This document shows positions 6,597 to 34,889 of a stretch of DNA of 39,958 nt, piece by piece. The first letter of the stretch is position 1; each line of letters begins with the position of its first letter. The DNA lies in IMG/VR virus record IMGVR_UViG_3300037882_005016, positions 1 to 39,958 of that record; one strand, written 5' to 3'. The translations under genes were made by a program, and so were the position numbers. A model generated the notes under the pieces. It saw nothing but the letters and a program-made list of their open reading frames with translations, was not told the origin of the DNA and did not search any database. The stretch comes from a virus.

Positions 6597-7373
6597 TTAA
6601 GCTACCTGAATTGTTCCGTACTGTGAAAACCCAGAAGTTAATCCAGACACAGAATTTGTCTTGCTTGCAGGAAGAGCTGTTCCAGATAAAGTAAAAGTAA
6701 CAATATCGTCGCCAATAAAAGAAAAACCATCGGCTGGGCCAAACTTAACTTTAAAAAGATTTACTCTATAAGAGGCTCCGCTTGCTGCGTTGATACCATC
6801 AAATAACACCTCAAGCTCTCCAGATGTTTTAGTTAAAATCTCAACAACATCCTGTGCTTTTTTTGTGTAATCAACGTGGATTGTGCTCGCAGCAGTAATT
6901 GTTGATCCTGTAGGAATACATAAGACTGACCCATCTAGAATATAATCTGTTCCAGCAAGATAAGTTGTTGTTCCCGCTACATCAGTCACAACAATTGCAG
7001 GAGCAGCTGCTGGCATATTTTTTAAAGGAATAAATGCCCCAACGCCCTCTACAAAGTGAGCCTCGTTTGTAATAGCAGACGTAGCAACCGTTGCCTGAGT
7101 TCCTAAAAAAGCTCGCGCAAGATTAGCAACATTTGCGCAGGTTACTGTCATATTTACATCAACGCTTTCAATCTCTTCAAATGAGCACTCTGTGCCACCC
7201 GCAGTTGTTGTGTAATTTTTAACAGTTAACTCGTTTACATTAGGAACAAACTCAAAGCTTGAGGCGTTTCCAATAAACTCAAAAGAGTTGGTTTCAGTTC
7301 CGGTTGCTAAATACGGTTTTACATAAATTTTACCGCGACCAATAAAGCAGCAGTCTTGTGTAATTGATGACAT
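6597..7373 (-). CDS. Major tail (tube) protein, paralogue 1
   Basis: 258 aa. It lies between the neck genes and the chaperone, is beta-rich, and is a paralogue of 5737..6579. Confidence 0.6.
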   Translation of the reverse strand: MSSITQDCCFIGRGKIYVKPYLATGTETNSFEFIGNASSFEFVPNVNELTVKNYTTTAGGTECSFEEIESVDVNMTVTCANVANLARAFLGTQATVATSAITNEAHFVEGVGAFIPLKNMPAAAPAIVVTDVAGTTTYLAGTDYILDGSVLCIPTGSTITAASTIHVDYTKKAQDVVEILTKTSGELEVLFDGINAASGASYRVNLFKVKFGPADGFSFIGDDIVTFTLSGTALPASKTNSVSGLTSGFSQYGTIQVA

Positions 7374-7387
7374 AGTTTTATTTCTCC

Positions 7388-7849
7388 TTATAATTTATAA
7401 AAGATTTCTCTCTCGTATATATTTCTTAGGACCAAAAAATTATTATGAATGAGCGGTTCTTTTTGCTCAACAAAATATAAATTTAGTCCAGTATTTTGTT
7501 CTGTTTTTCTTAATTCCATTATTTTATCTGTTACTAGTTTTTCTAGTTGATCGGCCCAAACAAATGGCCCAGTTAAGTTAGCCCCGCTTGGCGTAACGTC
7601 TATTTGTGCTTGTGTATTCGACGAGCAAGACACTGCAACAATAATTGCAATCTCCTGAATTACGGAAAAACAGTCCACAAATTTTGATTTATTTTTTGGC
7701 TTTGATCCTAGGGGAACAATAATTATTCCTGGATAGGACTGGCCCTCAATACCAATTTCTGAAAATTCTGATCTAATATCGACTCTATTAATTCCAGGTA
7801 TTGTGCAAAATGCTTCTTTTAAAATAAGTAGATCTTTTAAGCGTGACAT
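7388..7849 (-). CDS. Neck / tail-terminator-like head-tail joining protein
   Basis: 153 aa. It lies between the DUF1320-type adaptor and the tube genes and overlaps the upstream gene by 13 nt. Confidence 0.45.
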   Translation of the reverse strand: MSRLKDLLILKEAFCTIPGINRVDIRSEFSEIGIEGQSYPGIIIVPLGSKPKNKSKFVDCFSVIQEIAIIVAVSCSSNTQAQIDVTPSGANLTGPFVWADQLEKLVTDKIMELRKTEQNTGLNLYFVEQKEPLIHNNFLVLRNIYEREIFYKL

Positions 7850-20309: not shown

Positions 20310-21215
20310 TCACATCTTTTTATTTTTAATTTCGACAGCATTCAATAACTCCAAATATTTTTCATCGCCTAGAGCTCGCTTATTAATTTTTATGATCTTC
20401 AATAAATTTTCTTTATTATATTTATTTTTATTACGAATATTTGTAATATCTTTTGCCCTCGCTAGTTCTTGATTTTTACTGAGGCACTGCCCCATCCCTT
20501 TCATCGTATAAAAAACCAAGCTTCCACGAATACTCCCCACATCACCATCACTTTGTATAGGCATAGCTCCATGCAATATTGATCTTCCGTCAAAAATAGT
20601 GAGAGCACCAGACCTCTGGGAAAGAGTGATGTTTATTTCTGGCAAACACAGTTCTCCACCAGAAACTCCTTTCTTATAAATCAACACTGTAGACGGTATT
20701 GCCGAGAAGTTCCCTTTATCATAATGATATTTTATTGCGTGATTCATATTGACGTTTACCGTTGTAAATGGAGAGTTGCAAAATATATAATCATTGCAAA
20801 CATTTTGTTTTATAAAGTCCATTGCATACTCTGCCTTTTCTTTCTCTAATTGTTGAAATGTGTCATAAACATATTCATTCAATACGGCACAAATTCTGAA
20901 GTTTTTTTTCTCATCTAACGTATGTCTGGTCGCCCTACAAAAATCATGTCTCATTGGCACTCTTGGCAAAAATCCAAAAACGCTGCTTCTCTGAGATAAT
21001 CCATTGGACCTAGATTTTTCTGTTGGCTTTGTTGTTTCACATAAAATTCTACATATGTCTAAAATATCATTATCAATTATTTTATATATAATATAGCCCC
21101 CATCACTCAACTTGATGTGACAGCTTTCGTCTATTAATTCGCCAGTTATTTTAGGTGGGACCTTGCCTAGTAGACCACTTTCAACGGGAGACCTACTTGC
21201 AAATATTGTTTTCAT
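20310..21215 (-). CDS. TET/JBP-family 2OG-Fe(II) dioxygenase (nucleic-acid base oxygenase)
   Basis: H-x-D block YHYDKGN, distal-His block GALTIFDGRSILHGAMP and Arg block IRGSLVFY, in the order and spacing of TET2 HRDIHN / GSVLIECARRELHATTP / TRLSLVFY. Confidence 0.75.
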   Translation of the reverse strand: MKTIFASRSPVESGLLGKVPPKITGELIDESCHIKLSDGGYIIYKIIDNDILDICRILCETTKPTEKSRSNGLSQRSSVFGFLPRVPMRHDFCRATRHTLDEKKNFRICAVLNEYVYDTFQQLEKEKAEYAMDFIKQNVCNDYIFCNSPFTTVNVNMNHAIKYHYDKGNFSAIPSTVLIYKKGVSGGELCLPEINITLSQRSGALTIFDGRSILHGAMPIQSDGDVGSIRGSLVFYTMKGMGQCLSKNQELARAKDITNIRNKNKYNKENLLKIIKINKRALGDEKYLELLNAVEIKNKKM

Positions 21216-27683: not shown

Positions 27684-27941
27684 ATGCATCCAGATCTTAA
27701 GTCGGATATCCTTTTAATTTTATCAAAATGTGAGAGTCTTTTATTGAACGCTATCAATGAAATGCACTCTGAATTATCGGCTGAAAATAAAGAAGAGTTT
27801 AAAAACATGATTAAGGGTTTTGTTAAAATCAATAATAATTACTTTAGAGAGCAGCTTGATATCTATGACAACGATCTTATAGAAAAAATGTCAGCATCTT
27901 TTGAGAAGTCTCTAGATAAAAAGACGATTATTCAACTCTAA
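27684..27941 (+). CDS. Hypothetical early protein
   Basis: 85-aa ORF with a GAGGAG RBS 8 nt upstream. It is the first gene of the plus-strand block. Confidence 0.6.
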   Translation: MHPDLKSDILLILSKCESLLLNAINEMHSELSAENKEEFKNMIKGFVKINNNYFREQLDIYDNDLIEKMSASFEKSLDKKTIIQL

Positions 27942-28174: not shown

Positions 28175-29032
28175 ATGAATAATATTTTTGACCCGCTTGA
28201 GGATCAAGCAGACCTTGCAATACAGATGATCTATCCGGCGTTAAGAGTTTTAGCAAGGGATAAGTCAACGAGTGGCCTAGAGTCTATTTTAAGGGCCTCA
28301 TCTTCTGGGAAATGCTCTCGAGCTCTATGGTACAAAAAAAATAACTATGAAGAAGAGACTATAAATCCTAGAGCTATAATTAATTTTGCTCTCGGTGATT
28401 TAACAGAGCATCTTTATAAAAACCTTGTCCGCGAAAACATGGTTGGCCCTTTAAAATTATATAAAGAATTAGTTCTAGGAAAAGAGACCGGTGAATTTTA
28501 CTCTCAAGGCAGAATGTTTAAGGCCTATGAACAGGAAACTTGGTCCTTTGATCTAGACTATCTTGGCGAAACACAGAAAGTTACGGCTCATGCTGATGGT
28601 TATGGCTTAAGAAATGATGGCGTTTGGGAATTATTTGATTTTAAATCATCGTCAAATTTCGGATTTATGTCCTTTTTAAAAGACGGTCCAGTTGATTATC
28701 TACCTCAAGCGCATACGCTGATGATGACAAACGAGGCTCGAGAGTTAAATATAAAAGAGTTTCGTTTTTATTATTTAAAAAAAGATACTGGGCACATAGC
28801 GAGTAGGCTTATAAAATATGATAAAGAAATAGAGAAGAAAGTAATTAATAATTTTAAAGAAGCTATAGGAATAAATCGCCCCAAGATTCCTTACTCGCCG
28901 TTAATTGATAAGAAATTAGGCAAAGTTCTACCCTGGCAGTGCTCTTACTGTGGATTTAAAGATCATTGTTTTAAATATAAAACCGAGATTGTTTCTGGTA
29001 GACAAAAAAACGTGGTTAGCTCTCTTCTTTAA
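28175..29032 (+). CDS. PD-(D/E)XK nuclease, Cas4/RecB-like with a 4-Cys cluster
   Basis: N-terminal SSSGKCSRALWY, the core HADGYGL...VWELFDFKSSS (D...E-x-K), QAHTLMM, and C-terminal CSYCGFKDHC. Confidence 0.7.
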   Translation: MNNIFDPLEDQADLAIQMIYPALRVLARDKSTSGLESILRASSSGKCSRALWYKKNNYEEETINPRAIINFALGDLTEHLYKNLVRENMVGPLKLYKELVLGKETGEFYSQGRMFKAYEQETWSFDLDYLGETQKVTAHADGYGLRNDGVWELFDFKSSSNFGFMSFLKDGPVDYLPQAHTLMMTNEARELNIKEFRFYYLKKDTGHIASRLIKYDKEIEKKVINNFKEAIGINRPKIPYSPLIDKKLGKVLPWQCSYCGFKDHCFKYKTEIVSGRQKNVVSSLL

Positions 29033-29225
29033 GAAGGATGATTTCCCAAGTTTTTGATTTAATATCATTCACAGTAAATAGACCAGGCTTAAGTTCATAG
29101 TTCCCTGATTTTAATATAAAAACATATCTATGAATTTCTTTTAAATCTGTTCTATAAATTCCAACAACTTTCATTAAATTTATTGGGTAATCTTCACTTT
29201 TTTTTATCGCTGATTCTAGATCCAT
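29016..29225 (-). CDS. Questionable ORF (69 aa)
   Basis: Open frame only, with no SD. It overlaps the nuclease 3' end by 17 nt. Confidence 0.25.
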   Translation of the reverse strand: MDLESAIKKSEDYPINLMKVVGIYRTDLKEIHRYVFILKSGNYELKPGLFTVNDIKSKTWEIILLKEES

Positions 29226-29304
29226 TTTATAATTATATTCTTTTTTTTTATTTTAATAAATAGACGGAGTTCGAGCTTTTTAAAAAGATCTGCTTAATTA
29301 AAAA

Positions 29305-29665
29305 CAAGGCGTCGCTCAAGGGGGCGTTAGAGCCCCAACGCTCCTTTAAAAAAATCTTATAAATAAGCACCGTTTTAGGCGCAGGAGTGCTAAATACGTA
29401 GTCAGCTTTCTTGTTTTATTCAAGCTCCAGCTAAACTACAACTCGTGGTCCTCGTGAGTGTATGCTCTTCCAAAGGCATCATTTATAGCCTTCCTTAAGG
29501 GACCAGTCCTAGATGGATAGTGATTCGGTTTTATTCGAGGATTACTCCCTCACCGCCTCAGGGCTATCGTCTACTTGAGATTCGTCTATAAACCGTGCTT
29601 ACTGCCAATGATTGATTTATAGATGGGCACTCAAGAACCCCTAGGCAGTTACCTTAAGGAAGTAA
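29305..29665. ncRNA. Candidate structured RNA (or structured DNA element such as an origin); strand and family unknown
   Basis: No ORF of 60 aa or more in any frame across 29226-29816. The core is locally GC-enriched. Nested inverted repeats: 29490-29500/29652-29662 (11 bp), 29508-29512/29641-29645, 29516-29520/29564-29568, 29574-29579/29630-29635, 29585-29592/29616-29623, plus a GC hairpin at 29321-29336. Confidence 0.45.
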
Positions 29666-29816
29666 TTAGTACAGATTTTAAACGAATGTAAATCATTAAA
29701 AATTGACGACTAGTTTAATTCTATAACGCAGCGAGAAATATATTTACTTTAGACCGCTTATATAGAATAAATCTTTTAAGCAAAACAAGGGTATTAAAAT
29801 AGGGGTTAAAAAAACG

Positions 29817-29918
29817 ATGATTGAAAATGATTTTATATTCATCTCTCAAGACGTGATGTTTTATATTTTTATAATCATTGCATTAATAATCTTTATTTTA
29901 AGTTTACTTGATAATTAA
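29817..29918 (+). CDS. Possible 33-aa hydrophobic peptide
   Basis: Hand translation: MIENDFIFISQDVMFYIFIIIALIIFILSLLDN*. AGGGG lies 11 nt upstream, just before the next gene. Confidence 0.3.
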   Translation: MIENDFIFISQDVMFYIFIIIALIIFILSLLDN

Positions 29919-29936
29919 TAAAAAGGAGTATTAAAA

Positions 29937-30278
29937 ATGATTAAACTTGCAGGTCTTTACTTAAAGAAAAAAGAAAATGGTGAACCCTATTTTACAGGAT
30001 CACCGTCTAAAGATTCTGGTCATAATTATTTAATCTTTAAGAATACTAAAAAAACTTCGGACCAGGCCCCCGATTATATTTTATTGATCGCTGAAAAGAA
30101 TCAGCAAAAACCACAGAATCAACAAAATAAAAATAATAACTATCAAACGAATCAGAAAAGAAATAACTATTCTAATAATAAAAATAATAATAACTTTTCA
30201 TCTGACGACTCCTGGCCTGAGCAAGAAGTTGCCCCATCAACAGAGTTTGATAAAAGTAACGACGATCTTCCTTTTTAA
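29937..30278 (+). CDS. Protein with SSB-type C-terminal tip (DDLPF), a Q/N-rich linker and a small non-OB N-domain (DUF736-like)
   Basis: The AAGGAG RBS is strong. The N-domain is MIKLAGLYLKKKENGEPYFTG...APDYILLIAEK. The linker is QQKPQNQQNKNNNYQTNQKRNNYSNNKNNNN. The C-terminus ...SNDDLPF resembles the bacterial SSB DDDIPF tip. Confidence 0.6.
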   Translation: MIKLAGLYLKKKENGEPYFTGSPSKDSGHNYLIFKNTKKTSDQAPDYILLIAEKNQQKPQNQQNKNNNYQTNQKRNNYSNNKNNNNFSSDDSWPEQEVAPSTEFDKSNDDLPF

Positions 30279-34469: not shown

Positions 34470-34889
34470 CTAATCAATATACGTATATATTTTAAATAAA
34501 GTCTTTTTATCTTTTTTTGACTGAATTTTTTCAATCGACACTTTTGAAAACTTTGAATCGTCAATTTCAAGAGCCTCACAAATCGCATCCTCTGCTATCT
34601 TAAGCCTATTTGAAATATCCTGCTTCTTATCCTCGCCGCTTTTTAAAATCCAATTTTGACAAACTGAGACAACGAGCTCAAATCGATGTCCAATCTTCTT
34701 CTTATAATTAAACTCTTCTTTAAATCTAACTAATATTCTCTTCTCTAATACATTAAGATGAACAAAATTCTTAAAAGACTTTGCGTCAGCCGAAAGAAAT
34801 CTCCTTAAATGAAGTCTTGAGTTAGAATAAGAGCTATTAATAGTCGGTGGAATTCCATCGACCTCAAGACTGAAAATCTGATCTCTCAA
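34470..34889 (-). CDS. rusA: RusA-like Holliday junction resolvase
   Basis: GIPPTINSSYS...FLSADAKSFKNFV...QDISNRLKIAEDAICEALEIDDSKF fits the RusA pattern (D-x-x-N..K...DA....DD). The start is TTG with AAGGAA 8 nt upstream. Confidence 0.7.
   Translation of the reverse strand: MRDQIFSLEVDGIPPTINSSYSNSRLHLRRFLSADAKSFKNFVHLNVLEKRILVRFKEEFNYKKKIGHRFELVVSVCQNWILKSGEDKKQDISNRLKIAEDAICEALEIDDSKFSKVSIEKIQSKKDKKTLFKIYTYID

Follow-up and report, generated by a model that had tools for sequence, protein, structure and literature searches.

The 113-aa protein encoded on the plus strand at positions 29937-30278 of a siphovirus-like phage genome is probably an SSB-type protein with a non-OB head derived from DUF736, and related proteins in which the units of the head follow the order B-A' already bear the label SSB in GenBank and PHROGs. 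The explanation that we favour on balance, with moderate confidence, is that of a miniature non-OB substitute for SSB, in which the head would bind ssDNA and the C-terminal tip would recruit the SSB partners of the host, the recombination partners of the phage, or both. The strongest evidence on the function of the family is its genomic slot: relatives of the protein occupy the place of an SSB in at least six unrelated types of recombination or replication modules.

The window, i.e., the whole stretch of DNA that was analyzed, is a complete IMG/VR record of 39,958 bp with direct terminal repeats and a CheckV completeness of 100%. The phage encodes a tape measure protein, a major capsid protein, a portal, TerL and a J-like fibre on the minus strand, and a short early block is located on the plus strand at 27.6-33.3 kb. 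No close phage relatives were found in the IMG/VR search with the exonuclease of the phage or by megablast against phages, and TerL has only distant relatives, with at most ~38% identity. No tRNAs were found in the window; the region 20310-21215 on the minus strand carries the label queuine tRNA-ribosyltransferase in PHROGs (phrog_6059, E = 9e-24). The original prediction had described the phage as having no recognisable replication proteins, and indeed the searches of the window detected neither an SSAP nor a helicase, primase or polymerase. The recombination kit of the phage consists of a RusA-type Holliday-junction resolvase, a Cas4-domain exonuclease and the 113-aa protein, with no recognisable annealase. 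The positions of these features and the gene orders around relatives of the protein are given in Table 1.

Table 1. Features at and around the gene in the window, and modules in which members of the family are found elsewhere ("member" stands for the family gene, x for an intervening gene).
Feature	Position or locus	Strand	Basis or remark
Cas4-domain (PD-(D/E)XK) exonuclease	28175..29032	+	phrog_1990, E = 4.5e-20
69-aa ORF in the spacer	29016-29225	-	ORF list; overlaps the 3' end of the exonuclease gene by 17 nt
Spacer of 904 bp, exonuclease gene to gene of the 113-aa protein	29033..29936		ORF list, folding
Shine-Dalgarno box AAGGAG	29923..29928	+	read from the sequence; 8 nt before the ATG
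N-terminal domain, residues 1-56, DUF736 unit A + unit B	29937..30104	+	phmmer, AF2, conservation
N/Q-rich intrinsically disordered linker, residues 57-88	30105..30200	+	composition, pLDDT
Acidic C-terminal tail, residues 89-113	30201..30278	+	sequence; DDLPF codons 30261-30275, then stop codon
RusA-type Holliday-junction resolvase	34470..34889	-	PF05866, 24.0 bits vs cut-off 22.8; phrog_34
ERF - YqaJ - member, RusA further on	L003-5		
Cas4-domain exonuclease - member (4-nt overlap) - initiator, primase, DnaB	L006-8		
SbcD-like exonuclease - member	L002		
Member - RecT-like SSAP	L010-11		
Sak4-like SSAP - exonuclease - member	L019-23, L027-36, L041		5 IMG/VR loci + at least 12 MAG prophage loci
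ERF - x - exonuclease - HNH - member - O-like initiator	L025		
Recombinase - x - member	L015-17		weak PHROG matches 'DNA repair protein' / 'recombinase'
B-A' branch: helicase - Pol I - member - PurZ	Acinetobacter phage SH-Ab 15497, L044, MG674163 31377-31676		
B-A' branch: helicase ... member - tRNA - polymerase	Burkholderia phage Bm1 (L046)		
B-A' branch: helicase ... member - Pol I	Stenotrophomonas phage BUCT555		
B-A' branch: Sak-like SSAP - member	phage C72C1		
B-A' branch: RusA - member	Methylophilales phage MEP301		

The Cas4 exonuclease of the window is the orthologue, with 44% identity, of an exonuclease that is translationally coupled to another member of the family (P0060, in L006-L008). 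The exonuclease and the family member are the only genes common to the window and the L006-L008 phages, indicating that they form a conserved two-gene cassette. The two genes are 904 bp apart in the window, whereas they overlap by 4 nt in L006-L008. The spacer of the window contains a GC-richer, stably folding stretch (z = -4.1 on the plus strand and -3.6 on the minus strand), which bears out the earlier remark that the gene sits directly after a structured non-coding region. No Rfam family and no similarity to the spacers of other loci were found for it, nor was a sigma-70-like promoter found on its plus strand. A 2026 preprint describes a non-coding motif that is conserved immediately before DUF736 genes (bioRxiv 10.64898/2026.10.21.760802), which is of interest beside the folded stretch in this spacer. 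The spacer also holds a very hydrophobic ORF of 33 aa (29817-29918; MIENDFIFISQDVMFYIFIIIALIIFILSLLDN), which ends 18 nt upstream of the start of the gene; it may encode a small membrane peptide or have arisen by chance in AT-rich DNA.

The ORF at 29937-30278 was confirmed, with an ATG start. Its ribosome-binding site had been called the strongest of the early block, and this does not stand, as the Shine-Dalgarno boxes of the genes at 27684, 31263 and 31592 are equally good. The three-part layout of the product proposed in the original prediction holds, with slightly shifted borders (1-56 / 57-88 / 89-113). The net charge is +3 over residues 1-56 and -7 over residues 89-113. Between them, 15 of the 34 residues at positions 55-88 are N and 7 are Q, and the linker has a pLDDT of ~36-56 in both AF2 runs, single-sequence and alignment-based. 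The protein ends in ...EFDKSNDDLPF, so that, as in SSBs, a disordered linker leads to an acidic tip whose (I/L)PF motif forms the very end of the chain. Its sole match in NCBIfam is that of residues 53-113 to the last 55 positions of TIGR00621 (ssb), scoring 13.5 bits (cut-off 53.95). The restriction of this match to residues 53-113, far below the cut-off, indicates that only the tail of the protein is SSB-like. The whole protein matches no family in Pfam or PHROGs, and searches with it by tblastn against 50,697 phage records, by a word search of 5.8 billion proteins and in IMG/VR returned either itself or nothing.

Relatives were found with the N-terminal domain. A phmmer search with residues 1-57 gave 39 relatives at E<1e-3 among 1.84 billion cluster representatives (32-57% identity), and a profile built from these retrieved 80 proteins from 5.8 billion. 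In all, ~110 relatives are known from these searches, and 112 collected sequences were used for counting the tip. The shared domain is ~53 aa long, with the consensus x-I-x-L-t-G-L-W-x-K-x-s-K-x-G-x-x-Y-f-S-G ... v-L-I-F-K-N-t-x-K-x-x-d-N-Q-P-D-Y-x-l. This head is the best conserved part of the proteins: L7, G21, N36 and P45 are invariant, and W/Y8, F34, K35, K39, D46 and Y47 are at least 90% conserved. Beyond the head, the proteins have a median of 21 aa, with linkers that differ in length and sequence. A C-terminus of the form [ILVFMT]P[FY] (e.g., EEIPF, DDLPF, DDIPF, DDVPF or NELPF) is present in 65 of the 112 sequences, and many of the others end in an acidic stretch followed by F. The head is net positive in 91% of the relatives and the tail net negative in 89%. 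Since the tip and the charge dipole are found throughout the family, they are conserved traits and not chance features of one sequence; the linker and SSB-type tip first noticed in the window, the part that matches TIGR00621, are thereby extended to the family. The protein of the window is a very divergent member of the A-B type, with an unusually long N/Q linker and a Cas4 exonuclease as its partner. Most members of the family, this one included, are missed by Pfam, PHROG and NCBIfam annotation.

A resemblance of the head to DUF736 (PF05284) had also been proposed, and this is borne out through the relatives, the protein itself being below detection. No PF05284 match was found at E<=10 for the protein or in the six-frame translation of the phage genome. 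Of the 67 aligned relatives, 45 match PF05284 at E<=0.1, and several score above its gathering threshold of 22.1 bits, among them P0104 (32.3), P0110 (31.5), P0061 (28.2), P0092 (27.2) and P0074 (26.4 bits). The profile of the N-terminal domain retrieves bona fide DUF736 members from 5.8 billion proteins (P0061, E = 3.7e-15; P0074, 1.4e-11; P0101, 5.7e-9), and some of the retrieved relatives are named 'DUF736 family' by JGI. By these sequence comparisons, the head is a relative of DUF736, and the kinship is real but indirect, running via other family members.

The relationship is modular. The PF05284 model has 99 positions, and canonical DUF736 has the order A-B-A'. The protein of the window combines unit A, a hairpin of the form GL[W/Y]xKxxKxGxxYxxG, with unit B, IFKNxxKxxxxxPDYxL, which together align to positions ~5-64 in relatives of this type. 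It is not a full-length DUF736 protein (A-B-A', ~99 positions), as its domain stops at about residue 56 and is followed directly by low-complexity sequence. A second branch (P0104, P0106-P0111) has the order B-A' and covers positions 25-78, and tandem (A-B)x2 proteins of 116-195 aa are also present. The alignments of the A-B and B-A' types were matched by hhalign with 97.6% probability (E = 4e-12) over 22 columns of unit B. DUF736 is typical of ICEs and conjugative plasmids, e.g., msi110 of ICEMlSymR7A (PMC8627217), and is reported to be present on essentially all Mesorhizobium ICEs. No function assigned to DUF736 was found in the literature searched.

The structure of the head was predicted by AF2. 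The single-sequence run gave a poor model (pLDDT 57.8), which was replaced by a model based on an alignment of 67 sequences. In the latter, residues 1-50 have a pLDDT >90 and include four beta-strands (8-11, 17-21, 29-35 and 47-53), and the rest is modelled as disordered. A Foldseek search of PDB with this model gave no significant neighbour (best E = 1.8), and the comparison with SSB chains gave a TM <= 0.18 and an rmsd of 9-12 A. In BFVD, only uncharacterised proteins of uncultured phages were matched. A four-stranded WRKY sheet (TMt 0.45, E = 2) was rejected as a chance match. Sequence searches of PDB gave nothing with profile A2 and an uncharacterised protein at E = 0.03 with profile A5. 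The lack of a significant PDB match and the low scores against SSB chains mean that, as modelled, the head monomer is not an OB fold. The original prediction had reached a similar view from the argument that 55 aa are too few, and this argument fails, as size alone does not bar a beta-barrel nucleic-acid binder. The comparison with OB folds that it had proposed as a check sets the head apart from the OB domain of canonical SSBs, and PF00436 is not matched either. The occurrence of single, tandem and re-ordered versions of the units points to an oligomer of such half-barrels as the likely working form.

The modules in Table 1 bring the family together with partners that are mutually unrelated, comprising at least four SSAP families and several nuclease and polymerase families, and ssDNA is their common denominator. 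As ssDNA is all that these partners share, the most economical reading is a basic, aromatic-rich head that would coat ssDNA, with a tip that would work like that of SSB. The slot is accompanied by the absence of a canonical SSB. No PF00436 match was found at E<=10 in the complete genome of the window, including the protein itself, nor at E<=1 in any of the 13 IMG/VR records that carry a family member, mostly fragments, or in the five cultured phages with a complete genome and a B-A' relative; three of these five phages supply both a polymerase and a helicase themselves. The controls for this search were positive in 12 of 14 reference genomes. The lack of a canonical SSB in all 19 carrier records fits substitution and, with no matched base rate, is supporting rather than decisive.

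Labels that point in the same direction already exist for the B-A' branch. Its proteins carry a DDDLPF or EDDLPF end and belong to two PHROGs, phrog_18154 and phrog_7364, for which the annotation reads 'single strand DNA binding protein'; several GenBank records give them the name ssDNA binding protein. The PHROG matches were obtained only for the B-A' relatives P0107 and P0109 (E = 7e-9 to 1e-10); neither the protein of the window nor eight relatives of the A-B type matched these two PHROGs. The annotations are computational, and the tip alone may be their basis. The literature searched contained no paper dealing with DUF736-tip proteins or with the SH-Ab 15497 'SSB'.

Several other observations were made on the distribution of the family. 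The tight Sak4 - exonuclease - member cassette recurs in prophage regions of MAGs labelled Patescibacteria, Parcubacteria or 'uncultured Gammaproteobacteria' (L027-L036, L041), whose members are 47-96% identical to that of L019, and more distant family members are present in MAGs of Sumerlaeota, Pirellulales and Desulfurellales. In L025, the gene that separates the exonuclease from the family member encodes an HNH endonuclease (7012-7539). In L044 and L046, the B-A' gene lies between or beside a polymerase gene and an adenylosuccinate-synthetase-like (PurZ-type) gene, so that this 'SSB' looks like a part of an apparent 2-aminoadenine (Z-genome) replication cluster. Some family members have no PF tip, and one sub-branch ends in ...KQEDREE or similar (L014, L018, L024); its gene comes after a gene for a MazG-like dNTP pyrophosphohydrolase and not after recombination genes. 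All tip-less members whose context could be seen lie outside recombination modules, either with this MazG-like neighbour or in a tail region (L012).

We infer ssDNA binding, oligomerisation and tip partners for the protein, and a mechanism could take the following form. The basic, aromatic-rich, four-stranded head would coat the ssDNA that is exposed by the Cas4-type exonuclease of the phage, in the setting of end resection and recombination-dependent replication, and would probably do so as a dimer or a higher oligomer. The disordered N/Q-rich linker would display the acidic DDLPF docking peptide, as in bacterial SSBs. Through this tip, host SSB-interacting proteins could be drawn in, with the RecO/RecA loading factors, PriA, primase and the clamp-loader chi subunit as candidates. 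Host proteins are the likely partners because the phage lacks an SSAP, a helicase, a primase and a polymerase; in relatives that are accompanied by a phage annealing protein, the tip would recruit that protein. One of the two roles envisaged in the original prediction, the recruitment of host replisome or repair factors to phage DNA, is compatible with such an SSB substitute.

The other envisaged role, a decoy or hijacker that titrates these factors, is not favoured. In this explanation, the head would not bind ssDNA but the exonuclease, the SSAP or DNA ends, and the tip would tether the bound partner to the SSB-interacting proteins of the host or compete with host SSB for them; as a decoy, it might block ExoI, RecJ or RecQ and so protect the recombination intermediates of the phage. 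The tip is an exact and conserved host-type SSB docking peptide, the very small head matches no known ssDNA-binding fold, the member is tightly coupled in translation to the exonuclease in L006-8, and in a phage without replication proteins of its own the manipulation of host factors is plausible. However, one 55-aa head is unlikely to bind specifically to all the SSAPs, nucleases and polymerases beside which the family is found. A decoy would also need no more than the tip, yet it is the head, basic and with conserved aromatics and lysines, that is most conserved, and the carrier genomes have no other SSB. With an SSB slot beside unrelated SSAPs, exonucleases and polymerases and no canonical SSB in the carriers, a working SSB substitute fits better than a decoy, and we regard the adaptor or decoy explanation, the main rival, as rather unlikely.

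It is improbable that the protein instead anneals DNA or binds its ends as the partner of the Cas4-type exonuclease, in a minimal pair of exonuclease and annealase with a tip that displaces host SSB from DNA or docks onto DNA coated with it. The pair does occur without a recognisable SSAP in the window and in L006-8, and it is the sole cassette shared by these otherwise unrelated phages. In most other lineages, however, a bona fide SSAP (ERF, RecT, Sak4 or Sak-like) adjoins the member, which is therefore a third, SSB-like component there, and no similarity to any SSAP family was found in Pfam, PHROGs or PDB sequences. A function unrelated to DNA, e.g., that of a small regulator, has very little probability. 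The acidic ...LPF end would then be a protease degron or incidental; for Streptococcus mutans, a DDLPF C-terminus has reportedly been considered as a motif recognised by ClpXP, and some members of the family lack the tip. Such a function is at odds with the family-wide architecture and the recurrent recombination or replication context.

A broader and more tentative proposal, to which we would not yet commit ourselves, is that the DUF736 half-domain is a previously unrecognised, minimal (~55 aa) non-OB ssDNA-binding module that, joined to a linker and tip of the SSB type, replaces SSB in many phages, including some that encode a polymerase themselves; the widespread DUF736 proteins of ICEs and conjugative plasmids might then likewise handle ssDNA, in transfer and establishment. 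If true, the SSB-substitute reading would represent a new structural solution for coating ssDNA, in which the linker and tip of SSB are kept and half a DUF736 domain serves as the head, the smallest such head known. It would also provide a first testable function for DUF736, found on essentially all Mesorhizobium ICEs and on many plasmids, and explain how phages without replication genes plug into the SSB interactome of the host. In addition, compact SSB partners for ERF, RecT or Sak4 annealases in recombineering could be drawn from the family.

SSBs are regarded as near-universally OB-fold proteins, and the tip of canonical SSBs, such as E. coli SSB and B. subtilis SsbA, recruits their partners. 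The protein resembles canonical SSB (PF00436 / TIGR00621) in its basic head, its disordered linker and its acidic tip ending in (D/E)(D/E)(I/L)PF, as well as in the position of the family genes beside SSAP, exonuclease or replication genes. It differs in its head, which has ~55 aa and four strands, compared to the OB fold of ~105 aa in SSB. In phage HK620, the SSB gene adjoins sak4, and the last six residues of SSB are required for the loading and stimulation of Sak4 (Hutinet 2018, PMC5928155), a published precedent for the role proposed here for the tip. With DUF736, the protein shares the G-x-W-x-K...G-x-x-Y-x-S-G pattern of unit A and the F-K-N-x-x-K...P-D-Y pattern of unit B; in contrast to DUF736, it is of the A-B type without the second hairpin A', carries a disordered linker with an SSB tip and is phage-borne. 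The proteins of phrog_18154 and phrog_7364 (SH-Ab 15497 gp38 and MEP301 gp50) are similar in having unit B, a hairpin unit and a (D/E)DDLPF tip, here after a short linker, and, as in the A-B family, their genes belong to replication or recombination modules, in phages that lack a canonical SSB. Their units are arranged as B-A' and not as A-B, and their SSB label is computational.

Two non-canonical phage ssDNA-binding proteins are also comparable. The acidic tail of T7 gp2.5 ends in Phe. In the 'Healer' system, an AAA recombinase has the non-canonical DUF669 protein Gp63 as its SSB partner (PMC13687109). Gp63 and gp2.5 belong to sequence families unrelated to that of the 113-aa protein and are much larger, and their activity has been shown experimentally, whereas that of the 113-aa protein is predicted; what they would have in common with it is that they are non-canonical phage ssDNA-binding proteins working with a neighbouring recombinase.
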